Shown here: piece after piece, positions 2,367 through 63,360 of the stretch
Layout: each line of letters starts with the position of its first letter
How positions within the stretch are numbered: position 1 is the first letter of the stretch
Origin: Promethearchaeota archaeon
GTDB taxonomy: Archaea; Asgardarchaeota; Lokiarchaeia; Sigyniarchaeales; SOKP01
Length of the DNA: 64,000 nucleotides
Direction: 5' to 3'
Assembly: GCA_011364925.1 (NCBI GenBank)
Contig: RDOA01000005.1
Coordinates: 56,898 to 120,897, forward strand
Notes under the pieces: generated by a model
Seen by the model: only the letters and a program-made list of their open reading frames with translations
Told to the model about the DNA's origin: nothing
Database searches by the model: none
Program-made: the position numbers and the translations under genes

Positions 2367-4367
2367 ATGACCACGAAAAATGAAATAATTGTATTCGACG
2401 CCAATTTCTTTATTTGCATGAATTCCATTCGAGCAAAAAACATACTGGAAAATTTAAAATCAGCTGCTTCAGATCTAGGTTTTGTATATTACACAAGTAC
2501 CGTTGTCTTTGATGAAATTAAAGCCTCGAGTACGTATCGAGACAAGTTTCAAAACATTATAAAAGTTGAAAAAATAGAAGAATTAGAGATTGACTCAATT
2601 AAAAACGACCTAAGCACTGAAGGTATTCGTTTTCCTGCTCAAGATCCTGATTTATCCTTATTATCATTATCTCAGAAATTACTCGATGATGACAACAATC
2701 GTATGATCAATTTAGTTTCAGACGATTTTAAACTTGTAAAAAATGCTAATATATTCTTCCATGGAAAAATAAATATTTTGTCTCTTTCGAGTTTTTTATT
2801 AAAAATCCATAGAACAATCCCAAATAAACAATTACGAAGCTATTTTAAAAATTTATGGAAAAAAAGTTTGAACTACACCTTAGCATATATGATAGAACGC
2901 TCTAAAATCTATCCTGCTGAAGAAAAGATCACATGGTTAATTGAAAAAGCAATAAGTGTTACCCAAGACTCAATTATTACCCAAGATGCGCGCTATGGTG
3001 ATAATCAAAAGGATCATGTTAAATTTGAGATTGGAAAAAGTAAATACGAGAATGAAATTACTATTTGTGAAAAATATATTGGAAATCAAAAACTTGCGAA
3101 TAGTGAAGAAAAATACCTTACGGGAATAATCAATTTCCTTGAAAATTTAAAAATATCTCGCGAGTATGTAATACAAGCTCGCAAGGCGATTGAAAAACAG
3201 GAATCAAAAGATGCGGTAAAATATTTAAAAAAGGGAAATGGATTCTTAATTTCGCTTTTGCAAATTGCTTCAGGGCAGTTATCCAATCCCAAGGATTATG
3301 AGATTGTCGAACAATTAATCTGTAGCGAAATTTCAAAGATGGAGTTCTTAAGAGCCTTCATCTTAATTTCGTTAGGAAGGGTTAATAATGCTATTGATTC
3401 GTTAGAACGAGCAGCGCTTTTTTCTACGATAATTCATAATCATCAAACTTGTTTAACTTTAAATTATGTAAAAGCCTTAATCCTTTTGTTTCATGGGTTA
3501 TACAACAACGCGATTATGGCATATAACTTTACGGAAGAGCTAGCAGACATCTATAACGATGAACGCCTTAAACTCAAATGTGCTATAGGAAAAAGTATAG
3601 CGCTTTATATTCAAGGTGAGGATAGCGAAACAGCAATGGCAATAATGGAGGAGATTTCATTAATGGACATGGAGAAAAACTTCTTAGACGCGGTTATCGT
3701 ATTTGGCGAGCTCGGGGATTATTTCTTAGCCTTAGGTCACTCCCAATTAGCAGCAAATTTGTATAATGAGGCGCTAGAAATAAGTATTGACTACAATCTC
3801 AAGATCAGGAGCGATATTCTCATAGAAAAATTAAAACGTTCATACATCGCAACAGTTCTGAATGGGTATTCCACAGAGGATATTATGGTTGATAAATTGG
3901 ATGTCTTGCTTAATAGGGCTTACGCAGTAAAGGAAATTGAGAAATATAATGAACAGATTAAGAAAATATCTAGCTTTAACATTTTATTTTATACACCCTT
4001 TCCCTATATCACTGGTAAAAAAAAATTAGTCCCATATATAAAACTTCCTAAAGAGCTACAAGAGGATTATTTAGAAGTTGTTCATTTCGAAAAAATTGGT
4101 GACAAAGATGGCTCTAAATATCTTTTCGTAGTTTCTCACTATGAACTTGGATTACTTGGAATTATTCTAAAGACTGATGAGAGGGTAACTGGTATAGCAG
4201 AAAATTATACTTTGAAATTAAAACCTACATCAAAAGTTAAAATCTACAATCCATCCGCAAATTTAAAAGATACCTACTTGGTTAGAGCGATCGTAGAGGT
4301 TGTATCAAAAGATGAATGCGAAATTGTATATTCACTACCTTCTTTCTTTAAGGCGTTAAATATATAA
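2367..4367 (+). CDS. PIN-domain protein with TPR-like repeats
   Basis: N-terminal IVFDANFFI, VFDEI, DPDLSLL, LVSDDFKL (PIN acidic residues), followed by TPR-like helices. Confidence 0.7.
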   Translation: MTTKNEIIVFDANFFICMNSIRAKNILENLKSAASDLGFVYYTSTVVFDEIKASSTYRDKFQNIIKVEKIEELEIDSIKNDLSTEGIRFPAQDPDLSLLSLSQKLLDDDNNRMINLVSDDFKLVKNANIFFHGKINILSLSSFLLKIHRTIPNKQLRSYFKNLWKKSLNYTLAYMIERSKIYPAEEKITWLIEKAISVTQDSIITQDARYGDNQKDHVKFEIGKSKYENEITICEKYIGNQKLANSEEKYLTGIINFLENLKISREYVIQARKAIEKQESKDAVKYLKKGNGFLISLLQIASGQLSNPKDYEIVEQLICSEISKMEFLRAFILISLGRVNNAIDSLERAALFSTIIHNHQTCLTLNYVKALILLFHGLYNNAIMAYNFTEELADIYNDERLKLKCAIGKSIALYIQGEDSETAMAIMEEISLMDMEKNFLDAVIVFGELGDYFLALGHSQLAANLYNEALEISIDYNLKIRSDILIEKLKRSYIATVLNGYSTEDIMVDKLDVLLNRAYAVKEIEKYNEQIKKISSFNILFYTPFPYITGKKKLVPYIKLPKELQEDYLEVVHFEKIGDKDGSKYLFVVSHYELGLLGIILKTDERVTGIAENYTLKLKPTSKVKIYNPSANLKDTYLVRAIVEVVSKDECEIVYSLPSFFKALNI

Positions 4368-5513: not shown

Positions 5514-6110
5514 TCATACTAATAATTGCAGATTGATTTTGATTAAACGAATCGTGGAAGATGCTAAATATGAGCGATGTCCTAAGCTCAGATTTGTCAA
5601 ATTCATCTTTTTCAATTCATTATCAATTAGAAAATCACCGCTTTGATCTCCAATGAGAAATAATAAATTATCTTTTGACTTCAATTTCCTAAACTCTTTT
5701 CTATAATCATTACCAGATTCGTTTAACACATATATTTTATAATTTCGTTTAGTAAAATCCCTAATTGCATCAAAAATACTTTTCTCGGAGTATATTACTG
5801 ATTCAAGTGTTTTAGGGTGGTTTTCTGTTTTGGTCTTATTCTTAATCAAGCCTACAAAAGAATCTGTCAGTAAAATTTCATTTTTCGGAAAAGTCTCATT
5901 ATTTAGATAATTAGAATCAAAGATATATGTTCCATAATTATCAAGAAAAATCCAAATTTGAATATCTTTTTCAATTTCTTTTTCATTTAGAATAGCTGAT
6001 AAGACACATCTTGAAATAACATCAAGCCTTCCAGATGACCCCGGGATATCTTTGATATTATACTTACTGATGTTAACAGTTGCTGATTTTAAAAAATAGA
6101 TAATACTCAT
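5514..6110 (-). CDS. trmY: tRNA pseudouridine-54 N1-methyltransferase (SPOUT)
   Basis: GSSGRLDVISRC; FLIGDQ...LSLG SPOUT knot. Confidence 0.8.
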   Translation of the reverse strand: MSIIYFLKSATVNISKYNIKDIPGSSGRLDVISRCVLSAILNEKEIEKDIQIWIFLDNYGTYIFDSNYLNNETFPKNEILLTDSFVGLIKNKTKTENHPKTLESVIYSEKSIFDAIRDFTKRNYKIYVLNESGNDYRKEFRKLKSKDNLLFLIGDQSGDFLIDNELKKMNLTNLSLGHRSYLASSTIRLIKINLQLLV

Positions 6111-8205: not shown

Positions 8206-8942
8206 AAGTGGAAAATTTGAGTTTTGAATATAATTCAGATTTTTCCATTGAAAATTTGTCATTCAAAATCGAGGAAAGTTCAATATACGCTCTGACAGGA
8301 AACAATGGCTCTGGAAAAACAACTGTACTTCGGTTATTAGTTGGTTTATTAAAGCCTAAGGAAGGGAAAATTAAAATTTTTGACGAATTCTTAACAAGAA
8401 ACAGAAATCAATTATGGAAATTACGTCAGCAAATTGGATTTCTATTTCAAAATCCCGATGATCAGTTATTTGCTCCAACAATAAGAGAAGATATAGGTTT
8501 TGGAGCAAGGAATCTAGGACTTGAAGAAAGCGAGATTAACGACAGAGTTGAATGGGCGCTAGATGCCGTTAATTTGACCCAATATGGTAATAGTTCGCCA
8601 TATTATTTATCTTGGGGTCAAAAAAAGCGAGCTGCTTTAGCAGGATTATTAGTTATGAGACCTAAATTATTAATATTAGATGAACCCTTTGCAAATCTTG
8701 ATTTCAAATCTATATATAATCATTTGCAAATTTTTAACACTCTTAAAAAAGAGCAGAAAATGACAATTTTATTTACTACTCACAATCTTTTCTTTATAGA
8801 AAATTGGGCAGATAAAATGCTTGTTTTAAATGACGGAAAGGTTATGTTCGAAGGTCTTCCAGAAGAGGGCTTAAAAAATCCCAAAGTCAAAGAAGTATTA
8901 GGTTCTTATACAGAACTTCTAACTCTTATTGATAAAAAATAA
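8190..8942 (+). CDS. cbiO: ECF ATPase CbiO/EcfA (likely ATT start at 8190 or 8193)
   Basis: GNNGSGKTT, FQNPDDQLF, LSWGQKKR, LDEP; the upstream frame adds IIYLIEVENLSF after GAGG. Confidence 0.88.
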   Translation: MIYLIEVENLSFEYNSDFSIENLSFKIEESSIYALTGNNGSGKTTVLRLLVGLLKPKEGKIKIFDEFLTRNRNQLWKLRQQIGFLFQNPDDQLFAPTIREDIGFGARNLGLEESEINDRVEWALDAVNLTQYGNSSPYYLSWGQKKRAALAGLLVMRPKLLILDEPFANLDFKSIYNHLQIFNTLKKEQKMTILFTTHNLFFIENWADKMLVLNDGKVMFEGLPEEGLKNPKVKEVLGSYTELLTLIDKK

Positions 8943-8964
8943 TGATGTGTTCTGACAAAATAGA

Positions 8965-8979
8965 ATAAGTTTTTTTAAC
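8965..8979 (+). promoter_or_regulatory. BRE/TATA-like promoter of the ncRNA
   Basis: AATAAGTTTTTTTAA ~22 nt before 9000; the same AGTTTTTTTAA form precedes tRNA-Phe (~49573) and tRNA-Gly (~34235). Confidence 0.5.
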
Positions 8980-8999
8980 TTCATTTTATATTGTTACAT

Positions 9000-9303
9000 G
9001 GGAAAATGATGATGGAGCATTAGCATATTCGAGGACGCGTATGATTAACCGTGATTACGCGTGCAATGTTATGCAAACATCCTGAATTTATTAATCAACA
9101 ATTTCCTGTAAAAATGGGCTCTTAATCTAGCAATGGTAATACCGTGCAATGAGATTTGAGTCAGTACCCAGGCAGGATACATGATTATGTCCCGAAAAGG
9201 CATAGAAATTAACGCCTAGCACGAGAGAACTTATTTGATTAATGGTATACCCATTGAGTGATAAATTTGCGTTAGTGCACTAGGCAACAATATATGCTGA
9301 TTT
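9000..9303 (+). ncRNA. Three-hairpin H/ACA guide RNA with terminal C/D boxes
   Basis: Hairpins 9023-9074, 9104-9177 and 9214-9285, each followed by ACA (9077, 9179, 9287); ATGATGA at 9006 and CTGA at 9297; pocket 1 is complementary to 23S UUGC-U-A-CCUCGA. Confidence 0.75.
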
Positions 9304-9328
9304 AACGAATAATAGATTAAGACACTAA

Positions 9329-9799
9329 TTATAATAGGCTTATTGTATCCGAATTAAAAAGTTCTTTTAATTCTTTATTCATTTCTCCCGTTTCTTCTTG
9401 GAGATACCTGTCTAAAACAGTAGAAATCTTTTTAGAATATCTTTTCATTAAAGCCCTCACAAGCCCTATTTGGATGTTTTTATCTGTAGCAATACATAAT
9501 ACACCCTTTCCAACCTTGAGGGAGAAGATCATACCTTTAAAATATTCTGTGATTTGCAAATGAATATTTCCATATCCAAGTATGTATCCTTGTTCTTCTC
9601 CAGCAGTAAAAACAGCGCCTCCAATCGCTCCAATCTTTTCTACAGAGAGGTCATCTTCGTTTTTCAAGATGAACTTTGATTCACTCATGATGGTTATTCC
9701 CGTATCGTCTATAATTATAGCATATTTTAAGCCTGGAGTGCTATTAATAATTTCTTTTAAAAGATTTTTTAAAATACGCTCATCTTGGGAATAACTCAA
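9329..9799 (-). CDS. Roadblock/LC7 (LAMTOR-like) protein
   Basis: YAIIIDDTGITI...IGAIGGAVF...GVLCIATD..IQIGLVR roadblock pattern. Confidence 0.82.
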   Translation of the reverse strand: MSYSQDERILKNLLKEIINSTPGLKYAIIIDDTGITIMSESKFILKNEDDLSVEKIGAIGGAVFTAGEEQGYILGYGNIHLQITEYFKGMIFSLKVGKGVLCIATDKNIQIGLVRALMKRYSKKISTVLDRYLQEETGEMNKELKELFNSDTISLL

Positions 9800-10483: not shown

Positions 10484-11440
10484 TTACTTTTTATTGATTC
10501 CAAGATCTAGATTCTCAATTAATTCTTGAAATCTATTTCGGACAGTAACCTCTGTCACTTGGGACACTTTAGCAATTATTCTTTGAGTTCTTCGCTCATC
10601 AGTCAAGATGCTTGCAGCGTAGATCGCCGCCGCACATACTCCAGTTGGTCCCCGACCTGAAGTTAATCCTCTTATTTCAGCCATTTTAATAACTTTTTTA
10701 GCCATTTTATGGCATTGTGTAGAAAGTCCTAACTCAGATACAAACCGAGTTAGAAAATCCATAGGTTTGGTTGGATTTAGATTTAATTCTAACTCTTTAG
10801 AGATAAATCTGTAGGACCTTCCAATTTCCTTTTTGTTAACTCGAGCAACATCAGCAATTTCATTTAAAGTGCGAGGTACTTTATACATTCTGCATGCTGC
10901 ATACAAACTTGCTGCTGCAACACCTTCAATACTCCGCCCCCTTATTAAATGCGCTTCAACAGCATCTCTATAAATTTTTGCAGAACATTCGCGAAGATTT
11001 TTTTGAAGATCGAGATTTGAAGCCATTCGATCTAATTCACTTAAAGCAAAGGTTAGATTTCTTTCTGTAGCGTCTGACACTCTAATTCTCGATTGCCATT
11101 TTCTTAAACGGTAAATTTGACCTCTAATTTTCGCCGAAATTTCTTTACCAAAAATATCCCTATTTTTCCAGTCAATCATTGTACTGAGTCCTTTGTCATG
11201 AATCATATATGTCATAGGCGCTCCAGTTCTAGTTCGTTTCTTTTTTTGATCAGAGTCAAATGCACGCCATTCTGGACCCTGATCTATATGTTTTTCACTG
11301 TGAACTAAACCACATTTTTCACAGACTAACAAACCTCTGTTTTCATCAAATAATATATTTTGACCACACTCACTACATATTTCATGACTACGGTCAGTAT
11401 TCTCTTCTAAGAAAGCATTACTTTGATTCCAACTTGAAAT
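10484..11440 (-). CDS. tfb: Transcription initiation factor IIB (318 aa; ATT start)
   Basis: GPEWRAF, cyclin repeats; the complete Zn ribbon CSEC...CEKC needs 36 codons upstream of the ORF-track start. Confidence 0.95.
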
Positions 11441-11491
11441 AGCTTACTCCCTCTTAAAGATTGGTTCTTTAATAGAAAGGTTTCATTGATT

Positions 11492-11740
11492 CTAACGCAT
11501 TTTTGCGTAAAGGTTACCACTTGGATTAAAGTTCATACTGGGAATAATTTTCATTGAGATGAATGGGAGAGTTATTGGTCCAAAGATTTCTTTAATAAAA
11601 CCAATTTCAACAAATTCTTCTGTGAAAACTGGTTTGTTGGAAATCTTTTCTAGGCTTTTATTCCATTTCTTTGCTCTAAATATATGATGTTTTTTAGACA
11701 TTCCGAGATAATTTAGGTTCAGTTTTATATATTTTTGCAA
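11492..11740 (-). CDS. gar1: Gar1/Naf1 family H/ACA RNP subunit
   Basis: IGFIKEIFGPITLPF motif; conserved gar1-tfb linkage. Confidence 0.8.
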   Translation of the reverse strand: MQKYIKLNLNYLGMSKKHHIFRAKKWNKSLEKISNKPVFTEEFVEIGFIKEIFGPITLPFISMKIIPSMNFNPSGNLYAKMR

Positions 11741-11874: not shown

Positions 11875-12978
11875 CTAAATAAAATACTTCTGTAACTGAT
11901 ATTTTAACAAGCAATTACAAGGAACTTCTGATTTAATTTTTATCAAACAGTTAACATCTTGAGTTAGAACAAATTCTTCTAGCGTTTTGCTCATTAAGGT
12001 GTTACATTCTCTTTTTAGACAATTGTGAATACCTTTCTTAGTTCCTGCACCTGAAGGAGAAGAAATAATTCTTACTGATTTTAATACATCGTTATCTCTA
12101 TATGCCTTTATCAAACATTTAAACAACGAGTAAAACCACGGAGGTCGATATCTATTCTGATAAAAAAGATATTCAACAAGAGAGTTCTTCTGAATATTTA
12201 AAGGATTAATTGAAATAGTATTTACTTTCAACTTTGCTAACGCTAGGATAGACTCAACGCAGTCTTCTATCGCAGTCTGCTCATTTAGGAATGGTGGCTT
12301 GAATAGCAAATATACTCTAACTCCGATATCGTGCTCGCTACAAAGTTGGAGCGCATTTAAGAAATCTTTAAAATTTAAACCTTTATTAATGTAATTGTTT
12401 CTTATGTAATCATTTACGGTTTCTAAACCAATCGCAACTTCAGTGTATTTATTTGGTAAGACTTTTTTTATCTTTTTTAATTTTTCGACAGTTATATATT
12501 CGACTCGGGATTCAACCACAATTTCGATAATTTTAGGTATCGTTGCTATTTTCTTGTAAATAAATTCTCGAACTTCTTCTGATATTTCGTTATCATCAAA
12601 AAAGCTTCCAGAATTAAAAATTTTGATAATAAAATCATCTTCATCTGTTATAATATCATTTAACTTCTCTTTGAAGGCATAATCTATTTGATTCATTATG
12701 TGAATTTGGTCTATTTTTTCTATTGTAGAATCTTGGATGTATCCACACATAGAACAACCCCCAGAATCCCCTAAAGCCCAGCTACAGCCTTTGGTTCTTA
12801 AAATTATAGTGAATTCCTTACCTTTTTTTTTTAATAATCTATCTTCTTTTATCCAGAAACTTACCGGCTTATCTAATTGTATCTGTGTAAAACTTTTTTT
12901 GCCTTTTATTGATTTAAATCTAAAATCTTTAATTTTTTCAATGAGTTGTAAATTTATATTAAATTTTTTCGTAGACAT
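11875..12978 (-). CDS. Archaeosine biosynthesis radical SAM protein RaSEA
   Basis: ILRTKGCSW..GGCSMCGY, NSGSFFD, LLFKPPFL, YRPPW. Confidence 0.88.
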   Translation of the reverse strand: MSTKKFNINLQLIEKIKDFRFKSIKGKKSFTQIQLDKPVSFWIKEDRLLKKKGKEFTIILRTKGCSWALGDSGGCSMCGYIQDSTIEKIDQIHIMNQIDYAFKEKLNDIITDEDDFIIKIFNSGSFFDDNEISEEVREFIYKKIATIPKIIEIVVESRVEYITVEKLKKIKKVLPNKYTEVAIGLETVNDYIRNNYINKGLNFKDFLNALQLCSEHDIGVRVYLLFKPPFLNEQTAIEDCVESILALAKLKVNTISINPLNIQKNSLVEYLFYQNRYRPPWFYSLFKCLIKAYRDNDVLKSVRIISSPSGAGTKKGIHNCLKRECNTLMSKTLEEFVLTQDVNCLIKIKSEVPCNCLLKYQLQKYFI

Positions 12979-15046
12979 TTAGAATCTTACCTGTTTTAGA
13001 ATTCTTAATATAATTTGAACCTACAATTAAACTGCCTAATCCAATCAAACTTTCTTCTTGTTTATTAAATATTAAAACAATATCCTTTGGTACGAGATTT
13101 TGACTGAAATCAATAATTCCTGGGCGAAATAAAGTGTTTCCATTGATGTGTTCCCCGTCAAATACAATAATATTCTTCTTTTCTTCGAATGGTAATAACC
13201 TATTTGCGCCGTCAAGACTTAATTCAATTTGACCCGATTTATTATTGAAATTACCTAGTTTCTTTCGATTTTTTTGATCTATTATTTCAATCTGATCATT
13301 ATTTTTATTTTTCCATGTCTTTATCCCATTGAGAAATATATTGTTTCCCGATTTTGGACCAAATTGATAATCAATTATTTTAATAAACTTACGAGTCCAA
13401 GTTTTCAAGAAGTTTTTATTTTCAGGAATATTAAGTTCAAGTCCGGCGGACTCTTTTAAAGACTTTATTTTCTTCTCGAAAGACAGCAAAGAATCCTTAT
13501 TTGTAAGATTTCCTTCAATATCACTAAAATAAAATTTATGGTTTAATTGCCTCTTAGCTTCGTCTACTATTTCTAAGTATCCTGAGTCCTTTAAGTGACA
13601 CAATACAGGAATTCTATCGTCATACTTCTTCAATAAGGAAATGAGCATATTTGAGGCAATCTCTATTTCTTCCTTATCCCATTCTCCTGTCACAGAGATA
13701 TCATAAGAATTAACTGGATAAATATTTTCTAGTTGTCTTGGGATTGCTCCCAGTGGCGAAGTTATAATAATTTCTTGAAAATCTGGAAAATCTGGAAATT
13801 TTCTTATTACACTTTGAAATTTCCTATGGGATTTCGATTCGGAGTAAGGCTTTTTTGCTGAACACGGTAAAAGTATAATTAATTTCGTCCATACTTCCGG
13901 TGTAAAGTTCTTTATAACGCGATCCCGGAATTCTTGGAAATCTGGTCTGCAATACGAAGAGAGCCCAAAACTTTTAATAACTTTACTTGTTTGAGTAATT
14001 GGGGTCTCAAATCTCAATACATTAAAATATTGCTTATCAAGTATTCTTAAAGTAGAGATAATATTTACATCATCAAAGGTAGATTTTTCAATAAAACCTC
14101 TAAAATCTTCAATCCTCATGTATAATTTAATTTTATGCATATATGTGTATGCTGAAATAATATTGTGAAGAGTTAATTGTTCCAACTTTTCAGATGAATA
14201 TTTGTCAGTAAGATTGTATTTTAAACTTCGCTTACAAATAGCGCACGAACAAGGAAAATATTTTATTTTGTAAATTGGAAGTAAATATTCGATAGTATCG
14301 TAGAAATTTTCAGTTGATAAATACAATAAATAAGAACAATCTATAAGATCAATCCCAAGGTAGATTAAAATCGGATAATATTTCGGGATAATTCTGCCAG
14401 AAGCCATTAAAACTAGGTTATTATCGAGTTCTTTTTTGATTTTAAATATCACGCTTAATATTTGCCTAAAATTACTAAAGTTGTCAAAAAGATCTACTAA
14501 ATTAAGTATTCTCACATTCTCATTATTCTTAATTAAAGGAATGTAAAGATCAAATAACTCATAATATTCATAGATCTTAATAGATAATCCAAAATCTAAA
14601 CCATTATATTTTTTTAGAATTTCATTAGATTCACTTATAAAATTATTAATTTCTTCTATAGCAAATTCCTTGTTAATTGCCGTTGTCGCAATATTGAATG
14701 GGATAGAAGGTATAATGTTATCTTCTTGAAAGATATCAACATTAGAAGCTAATTTTTCCTTAAAAAACTCCATTGAACCATTATGTGTGTATATGAAACC
14801 AGTTTGTTTGAATTTGTCTCTTAAAAATTCTATCTTTAAATAAAAATCTTTTAAAATTAGGAATATTTCGTGATCTTCAAATTCCTCAAGAAAGTTAACA
14901 TTATTCATTAAACTTTTCTTCATCGGAACAATAATATTCGGCGTCGATATAAACTTTTTCGTCTCTTTTGAACATACTATTCTTCCGATTCTTGAGAACC
15001 CTACGCTTTTTGTAAGTAATTCAAAAAAGTAATTCATGGTTTTCAA
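12959..15046 (-). CDS. arcS: Archaeosine synthase alpha subunit (TgtA2/ArcS; TGT + PUA)
   Basis: LLPCSAKKPYSESKSH, TSPLGAIPR, YDISVTGEW; C-terminal PUA domain. Confidence 0.85.
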   Translation of the reverse strand: MKTMNYFFELLTKSVGFSRIGRIVCSKETKKFISTPNIIVPMKKSLMNNVNFLEEFEDHEIFLILKDFYLKIEFLRDKFKQTGFIYTHNGSMEFFKEKLASNVDIFQEDNIIPSIPFNIATTAINKEFAIEEINNFISESNEILKKYNGLDFGLSIKIYEYYELFDLYIPLIKNNENVRILNLVDLFDNFSNFRQILSVIFKIKKELDNNLVLMASGRIIPKYYPILIYLGIDLIDCSYLLYLSTENFYDTIEYLLPIYKIKYFPCSCAICKRSLKYNLTDKYSSEKLEQLTLHNIISAYTYMHKIKLYMRIEDFRGFIEKSTFDDVNIISTLRILDKQYFNVLRFETPITQTSKVIKSFGLSSYCRPDFQEFRDRVIKNFTPEVWTKLIILLPCSAKKPYSESKSHRKFQSVIRKFPDFPDFQEIIITSPLGAIPRQLENIYPVNSYDISVTGEWDKEEIEIASNMLISLLKKYDDRIPVLCHLKDSGYLEIVDEAKRQLNHKFYFSDIEGNLTNKDSLLSFEKKIKSLKESAGLELNIPENKNFLKTWTRKFIKIIDYQFGPKSGNNIFLNGIKTWKNKNNDQIEIIDQKNRKKLGNFNNKSGQIELSLDGANRLLPFEEKKNIIVFDGEHINGNTLFRPGIIDFSQNLVPKDIVLIFNKQEESLIGLGSLIVGSNYIKNSKTGKILNVYEKI

Positions 15047-49609: not shown

Positions 49610-49715
49610 GCCAAGGTGGCGTAGTAGCGACCGTATATCAGGGTCCTGCGAAACCCGGGAACGCACCAGACTGAAGATCTGGGTATCGAGGGTTCAAATC
49701 CCTCCCTTGGCACCA
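49610..49715 (+). tRNA. tRNA-Phe(GAA) with ~27-29 nt D-loop intron; CCA encoded
   Basis: GCCAAGG/CCTTGGC-ACCA, D stem GCGT/ACGC, anticodon arm CCAGA-CTGAAGA-TCTGG. Confidence 0.9.
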
Positions 49716-63227: not shown

Positions 63228-63360
63228 TGGGCCTGGCAGGATTCGAACCTGCGACTTTGGGTCGATGGATATTTCCACCTGACATCCCAGTCCGAAGCCG
63301 GGTACCCCTCGGATTGTGCAATAAGTTTTCACACAATTATCCAGACTAGATTACAGGCCC
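63228..63360 (-). tRNA. tRNA-Arg(TCG) with two introns (63308-63337 at 21/22; 63256-63283 at 45/46)
   Basis: Removing two BHB-bounded inserts gives a 75-nt cloverleaf with anticodon arm CCCGG-CTTCGGA-CTGGG. Confidence 0.88.

Follow-up and report, generated by a model that had tools for sequence, protein, structure and literature searches.

The closest described systems to the RNA reported here are the three-motif box H/ACA guide RNAs Pab40, Pf7, Pho40 and Afu4, corresponding to HgcG (Rfam RF00064). Motif 1 of Pab40 is the guide for Psi2588 of P. abyssi 23S rRNA, a pseudouridine that is CMCT-positive in cells and is made efficiently in vitro; overall, 15 of the 21 predicted P. abyssi sites were modified in vitro, the sites of RluE, RluC and RluB are made there by Pab35, and positions 2549, 2588 and 2603 are given as conserved with eukaryotes (PMC2377435). 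Motif 3 of Pab40 guides 1915 (23S positions are those of E. coli unless another species is named), and U2586 is the proposed site of motif 2 of Pf7 and Afu4 and of Haloferax HP1 (PMC2584109). In Haloferax volcanii, HP1 and HP2 are homologous to stems II and III of Pf7, with 2586 and 1915/1917 as their proposed sites, and haloarchaea, unlike the RNA described below, are without a stem I homologue and without the 2496 modification (PMC2584109). The geometry of archaeal H/ACA motifs follows a rule that sets the apical K-turn or K-loop by a GA stem of approximately 10 positions (PMC4652768). In yeast, 25S Psi2865 is guided by snR46 (PMC5699541).

Here, we analyzed a stretch of 64,000 nucleotides (the window) on contig RDOA01000005.1 of a Promethearchaeota archaeon. 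An ABC ATPase gene that ends at 8942 and a convergent roadblock-like gene that ends at 9329 leave a 386-nt gap between them, and this gap houses the RNA. The features to which we refer are as follows, in window coordinates:

8970..8978, + strand: TATA-like T-rich element, a putative promoter found by sequence inspection, with a similar element in homologues
9000..9297, + strand: three-motif box H/ACA guide RNA, most likely the Asgard counterpart of Pab40/HgcG, about 300 nt, ends approximate
9004..9016, + strand: basal kink-turn, 5' strand (C-stem 9004-9007, 3-nt bulge 9008-9010, sheared GA 9011-9012, NC-stem 9014-9016)
9023..9027, + strand: hairpin 1 lower stem, 5' strand, pairing with 9070-9074
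9029..9034, + strand: hairpin 1 pocket, 5' guide strand TCGAGG, complementary to 23S 2498-2503
9035..9062, + strand: upper stem of 7 bp (strands 9035-9041/9056-9062) and apical K-loop, a predicted L7Ae site
9063..9066, + strand: hairpin 1 pocket, 3' guide strand GCAA, complementary to 23S 2492-2495
9077..9079, + strand: ACA box of motif 1, 14 nt (9063-9076) from the upper stem
9080..9089, + strand: basal kink-turn, 3' strand, with a box D-like CUGA (9082-9085) whose GA is conserved in most homologues
9104..9181, + strand: motif 2 (lower stem 9104-9108/9173-9177, 3' guide 9165-9171, ACA 9179-9181)
9214..9289, + strand: motif 3 (5' guide 9223-9227, 3' guide 9273-9276, ACA 9287-9289)
11492..11740, - strand: Gar1-like ORF at a distance of 2.2 kb from the RNA (match to Pfam PF04410 with E 7e-5, under the curated cut-off)

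The TATA-like element lies approximately 22-30 nt 5' of a conserved GGG start and is preceded by a purine-rich, BRE-like stretch; judged by their sequence, the two together form a putative promoter. The noncoding stretch 8960-9330 is present in 123 of 135 genomes of the host family, including all 13 genera. Of 151 genomes drawn from across the phylum, models built from the family copies recover the RNA in 54 when the full length is used and in 56 with hairpin 1, with at least one weak match being spurious (L370), and the matches outside the host family in this sample fall into approximately 10 further Asgard families. Nearly all of the divergent Asgard copies inspected retain the pocket core. 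The RNA consists of three tandem H/ACA motifs, with ACA boxes at 9077, 9179 and 9287, each situated under a conserved hairpin. A search of Rfam with the window RNA returned no family at the gathering level, and the window sequence of hairpin 1, folded by itself, does no better than shuffled sequences (z -1.2); therefore, the case was made by comparison.

Several variations in layout were seen among the copies. Conserved outer helices (9000-9002/9191-9193, 9092-9097/9182-9187 and 9199-9203/9293-9297) appear to enclose motifs 1 and 2, motif 2 and, for some family members, motif 3, which would put each ACA box within an internal loop. One Asgard copy (L369, G220:C13:54345-54545) has motifs 1 and 3 without motif 2, and another (L358, G225:C43) retains motifs 2 and 3 together with a motif 1 that is without the CGAGG pocket strand, possibly reflecting retargeting or decay. 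In genome G093, a second, partial copy of motif 3 (L372, G093:C17:42368-42462) is found approximately 500 nt 3' of the full RNA.

An earlier note on this DNA had placed the pocket strands, upper stem, ACA box and 14-nt spacing of hairpin 1 exactly where we find them, and its reading of the hairpin as an H/ACA motif is borne out by conservation, covariation, the invariant pocket and the box spacing. When the structure derived from the window was applied to 51 homologues, 94% of cells were paired and two-sided change was seen at 16 of 18 pairs, among them all five pairs of the lower stem and six of the seven pairs of the upper stem. None of 500 shuffles reached this level and slid controls were 16-42% paired, controls that are somewhat flattering given that these genomes are related and one of them supplied the structure. 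These counts are limited to hairpin 1 and the basal stems because RNAalifold, supplied with the plain alignment, recovered hairpin 1 and gave motifs 2 and 3 a wrong fold. Throughout the 51-copy alignment, CGAGG and GCA, the cores of the pocket, are invariant, as is the UGA of the K-loop; the stems vary, and this combination of an invariant pocket with variable stems supports the guide reading. The K-loop is formed by GA (9043-9044) opposite GUGAU (9051-9055), with the GA conserved in at least 90% of homologues, and the GA stem (9035-9044) spans 10 positions, counted from the pocket up to the second sheared pair, which fits the published geometry (PMC4652768). The distance from pocket to box is 14 nt in 48 of the 51 homologues and 15 nt in the other three, within the 14-16 nt range used for the test, and the box itself reads ACA in 43, AUA in six and AAA in two. 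Hairpin 1 is almost certainly a canonical archaeal box H/ACA motif. Eighteen consecutive bases of the K-loop (9040-9057) are common with the Rfam snoU43 consensus (E = 6), a likeness that we attribute to chance plus a shared D'/C' motif.

Directly after the ACA box of motif 1 begins the stem of a basal kink-turn. Covariation with compensatory changes is evident at 9014-9016/9080-9082 and at 9005-9007/9086-9088, with the tandem GA between them, and the element is present in several other Asgard families; none was found in HgcG or in the two copies from putative Heimdallarchaeum (L366 and L367). These two copies have a compact form, in which motif 2 directly follows motif 1, as in Pab40, and their motif 3, which shows no clear ACA box, is followed by an apparent tRNA gene. 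The basal stem could hinder Cbf5, and our guess is that the kink-turn is a second L7Ae site that shields the 5' end. More broadly, it is conceivable but doubtful that the basal site, which many Asgard copies carry, brings in a second L7Ae (or Nop5) and shields the RNA ends or controls the loading of Cbf5. Should this be true, the layout, with its further outer helix around motif 2, would be an H/ACA architecture of which our search found no description in archaea, and an analogue of the eukaryotic composite C/D-H/ACA RNAs. In composite scaRNAs such as U85, the H/ACA unit is enclosed by a terminal kink-turn of C/D type; their likeness to the window RNA is architectural only, and no methylation guide is detectable here.

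No 23S rRNA was found in a search of the host assembly, and the target was tested on the 23S rRNA of two relatives, one of the same genus and one of the same family. Both read UUGC-U-U-CCUCGA at the site, and the host would be expected to read likewise. Alignment with E. coli 23S rRNA gives the target U as 2496, with the numbering set by standard anchors, given that the E. coli strain in the alignment is offset by one base. In both relatives, U2496 is the best 23S site for the window pocket, with 10 Watson-Crick pairs, and the earlier assignment of the target to U2496 stands on this first rank and on the alignment. Among 3000 dinucleotide shuffles, a strict 4+6 match of this kind arose once, and 68 times if G-U pairs were allowed. 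Across 69 homologous guides compared with the 23S and 16S rRNAs of the relatives, all pair at U2496, with a mean score of 26.7 against 17.7 or less for any other site, and in 18 of the 69 the 5' pairing is lengthened to 7-9 bp along the same rRNA. The 3' guide duplex of hairpin 1 is only 4 bp. On the strength of this complementarity, hairpin 1 very probably guides the formation of a predicted Psi2496.

The earlier note had given the target as UUGC-U-A-CCUCGA and had counted a host 23S rRNA without UUGCUACCUCGA against its proposal. That exact sequence is indeed lacking in the relatives, where 2497 is U and not A, as it is in all 29 Lokiarchaeia/Promethearchaeota records among the 80 matches listed from a collection-wide search that allowed A or U. 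Nevertheless, 2497 is the unpaired N of the target, and the A-to-U difference therefore leaves guiding unaffected. Among the same matches listed, Heimdallarchaeia 23S rRNAs have A at 2497 in 13 of 19 records and U in the other six. The E. coli base at 2497 is A, and at the equal position yeast presumably has U. Records of Hel-, Hermod-, Sif-, Atabey- and Hodarchaeota also carry U at 2497 (2497 loci: L031:4217-4218, L032:4243-4244, L043-L122). The host genome contains a single exact match to UUGCUACCUCGA, which lies on contig C86 outside any rRNA and was taken as chance. The 23S rRNA of the same-genus relative (G105, L032) carries an insertion of 31 nt within the region of helix 91 (L032 about 4280-4312) and A for U at about E. 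coli 2555 in the A-loop and 2593 (L032 4333 and 4371), differences that are either real variants or assembly errors.

The remaining two motifs can be assigned with less assurance. The guides of motif 3, GAGAG and UAGU, are nearly invariant and pair with helix 69 around U1917 through nine Watson-Crick pairs, leaving three unpaired bases (a UNN gap). Helix 69 of Lokiarchaeia looks close to the yeast sequence. The U1917 match was reached by 11 of 3000 shuffles, under a pattern chosen after inspection, and ranked second in an unbiased scan; the complementarity points with moderate confidence to U1917 as the target. A UNN gap is functional in Pab19 (PMC2377435). The 3' guide of motif 2 ends in CCC 12 nt before ACA, as it does in motif 2 of HgcG, and its target is tentatively U2586. 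At this site the 5' guide pairs only past a 4-nt gap, a pattern seen in 356 of 3000 shuffles and so not significant, the pairing fails on the G105 23S rRNA owing to a substitution there, and other sites score equally. We rejected the A-loop (2554/2555) as a target of motif 2, given that the pairing is broken by an ACGG variant common outside the host family, and a site in domain II, given that it needs a 13-nt spacing. The sites fitted by motifs 2 and 3 are the ones proposed for Haloferax HP1 and HP2.

Motif 1 of the Pab40/Pf7/Pho40/Afu4 family and hairpin 1 have in common the core CGAGG / GCRA and a 7-bp upper stem with K-loop (PMC2377435, PMC4652768). They also have in common the 14 nt to ACA, the target at E. 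coli 2496 and the place as first of three motifs, and the tentative targets of the later motifs of the window RNA fall in the regions assigned to those of the Pab40 family, 2586 (a prediction there too) and the helix 69 loop. Both the HgcG consensus and a pair of metagenomic copies confirmed by Rfam (194 and 182 bits) show a motif 1 pocket of GCGAGG/GCGA, a 7-bp upper stem and 14-nt spacing, and this pocket pairs with the same bases as that of hairpin 1; by its neighboring proteins, the HgcG copy L280 looks to be from Thermococcales. A covariance model built from Lokiarchaeia hairpins only returned HgcG motif 1 as its best non-self matches (25.1 and 20.0 bits). However, the window RNA has no match to RF00064, the gathering threshold of which (77 bits) was not reached, and is therefore treated as a probable distant orthologue and not filed as a member; an RF00064 match in L040 was spurious. 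Since a full-length, sequence-only Asgard model likewise did not find HgcG significantly, the argument for orthology is built on the identity of the pocket, on geometry and on the order of the motifs, with the same order of three targets as the main argument. There are also differences. Unlike the Pab40 family, the window RNA is AU-rich and missed by RF00064, its lower stem in hairpin 1 is approximately 5 bp rather than 8, a basal kink-turn sits just under the ACA of hairpin 1 and motif 2 is closed by a conserved outer helix. With its UNN gap, motif 3 fits U1917, whereas that of the Pab40 family has U1915, and the unpaired N of the target is U, unlike that of the Pab40 family. All told, the window most likely encodes the Asgard orthologue of Pab40/Pf7/Afu4 (HgcG), and we consider it probable, with good confidence, that hairpin 1 is the orthologue of Pab40 motif 1.

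The equivalence of U2496 to yeast Psi2865, proposed in the earlier note, is upheld by the match of Um2921 with E. coli Um2552, which gives an offset of 369 and hence 2865 - 369 = 2496. Yeast snR46 and hairpin 1 have the ribosomal position, the Cbf5 enzyme family and the bipartite pocket mechanism in common; unlike hairpin 1, snR46 has the eukaryotic two-hairpin H-box/ACA architecture without a K-loop, and the two are likened by site and mechanism. The note had gone on to suggest a modification shared between Asgard archaea and eukaryotes. That guide and site are an innovation of these two groups might seem to follow from the common yeast position and from the absence of 2496 from the mapped 23S pseudouridines of S. 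islandicus, as well as those of H. marismortui (PMC2584109), yet we consider it extremely unlikely, since the same site is a mapped pseudouridine in P. abyssi, Psi2588, with Pab40 motif 1 as its guide. In our own mapping, P. abyssi 2549, 2672 and 2697 match E. coli 2457, 2580 and 2605 with an offset of 92, the same offset is obtained from P. abyssi 2678, which equals H. marismortui 2621 and E. coli 2586, and P. abyssi 2588 is therefore E. coli 2496. Adding 277 to P. abyssi 2549, 2588 and 2603 gives yeast 2826, 2865 and 2880, all of which are listed pseudouridines, and the HgcG motif 1 pocket confirms the site independently. The Psi2496 site is patchy in distribution, not Asgard/eukaryote-specific. 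A genuine H/ACA guide for U2496 could also have arisen by convergence, independently of Pab40. Any guide for U2496 needs the same pocket, so that pocket identity alone is no proof of descent, and the lack of an RF00064 match and the differences of the stems in sequence and GC content would agree with a separate origin. We nevertheless regard convergence as unlikely, because both RNAs arrange their three motifs alike, with predicted target regions that correspond (2496, 2586 and the helix 69 loop), the CCC of the motif 2 3' guide is found 12 nt before ACA in both, the Haloferax hairpins proposed for 2586 and 1915/1917 are homologous to stems II and III, and an Asgard form without the basal kink-turn exists (L366).

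Two further explanations accept the conserved structure and read its function differently. The pocket could bind the same site with U2497 as the modified base, or the RNA could be a folding chaperone of helix 89 that brings about no modification. Lokiarchaeia carry adjacent uridines at 2496 and 2497, opening of the first upper-stem pair (non-standard in eight of 51 homologues) could free A9035 to pair with U2497, and the basal stem encloses the ACA box. Against this, a target at U2497 needs the 3' guide A opposite U2496, a register that does not score; the 14-nt rule points to 2496; and the same pocket core is found in putative Heimdallarchaeum, where 2497 is A. We judge this reading to be quite improbable. 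It is more improbable still that 9006-9085 guides methylation as a box C/D RNA, or combines C/D and H/ACA guiding, even though boxes C, D', C' and D can be recognized in the form of a C-like motif (9006-9015), the D'/C' K-loop and CUGA (9082-9085), along with a weak Rfam C/D match (E = 6). The 12 nt 5' of D and D' give only 6-8 nt of rRNA complementarity, at sites that are scattered among homologues, and the positions before D and D' are stem strands that covary with each other. Comparison with rRNA across the homologues found no conserved 10-12 nt antisense element 5' of D or D', and weak Rfam C/D matches (E 5-6) were rejected as chance.

The preferred reading, an H/ACA guide for U2496, calls for the corresponding proteins, and the host genome has genes for Cbf5, Nop10 and L7Ae, in addition to the Gar1-like ORF near the guide. 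Genes for RNA modification lie nearby at 5514-6110, 10484-11740 and 11875-15046, comprising a PF04013 SAM-dependent RNA methyltransferase, a gar1-tfb pair and upstream ORFs that, by inspection only, look radical-SAM and archaeosine-synthase-like. The window also contains Rfam tRNA matches at 49648-49704 and 63228-63360, one partial and one in which the D-loop and variable region have long insertions, which are possibly intron-containing tRNAs. Contigs from four metatranscriptomes, each from a different study, lie almost only on 9013-9273, and one of 259 nt is identical to the window; the lack of contigs over the flanking genes was not counted as evidence. The runs were selected with this stretch, and the contigs give no strand, ends or level; the RNA is present in these libraries, which is suggestive of expression as a small RNA.

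In the mechanism that we propose, the apical K-loop of hairpin 1 would be bound by L7Ae, and the ACA box and lower stem by Cbf5-Nop10-Gar1. Positions 2492-2495 of the 23S rRNA would pair with the 3' pocket strand, and positions 2498-2503 with the 5' strand. The two uridines between them, U2496 and U2497, would stay unpaired where the upper stem begins, 14 nt from the ACA box, and U2496 would then be turned into pseudouridine by Cbf5. We hold the whole explanation, of a guide for U2496 that is an orthologue of Pab40/Pf7/Afu4, to be highly probable.

The window RNA is a known type of guide that is unrecorded in Rfam for Asgard archaea, and a literature search of incomplete coverage found neither a paper on Asgard H/ACA guides nor data on modifications in the rRNA of any Asgard archaeon. 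The range of a guide described in Thermococcales and Archaeoglobus would thus reach across the Asgard phylum, where Rfam had missed it. For Asgard ribosomes, this predicts a pseudouridine at 2496, probably at 1917 and perhaps at 2586. The 2496 uridine sits beside the catalytic center of the ribosome. For specialists the result is useful rather than surprising, as Psi2496 would not be an invention of Asgard archaea and eukaryotes but an old archaeal mark, apparently missing from Sulfolobus and haloarchaea, that was kept on the lineage to eukaryotes.
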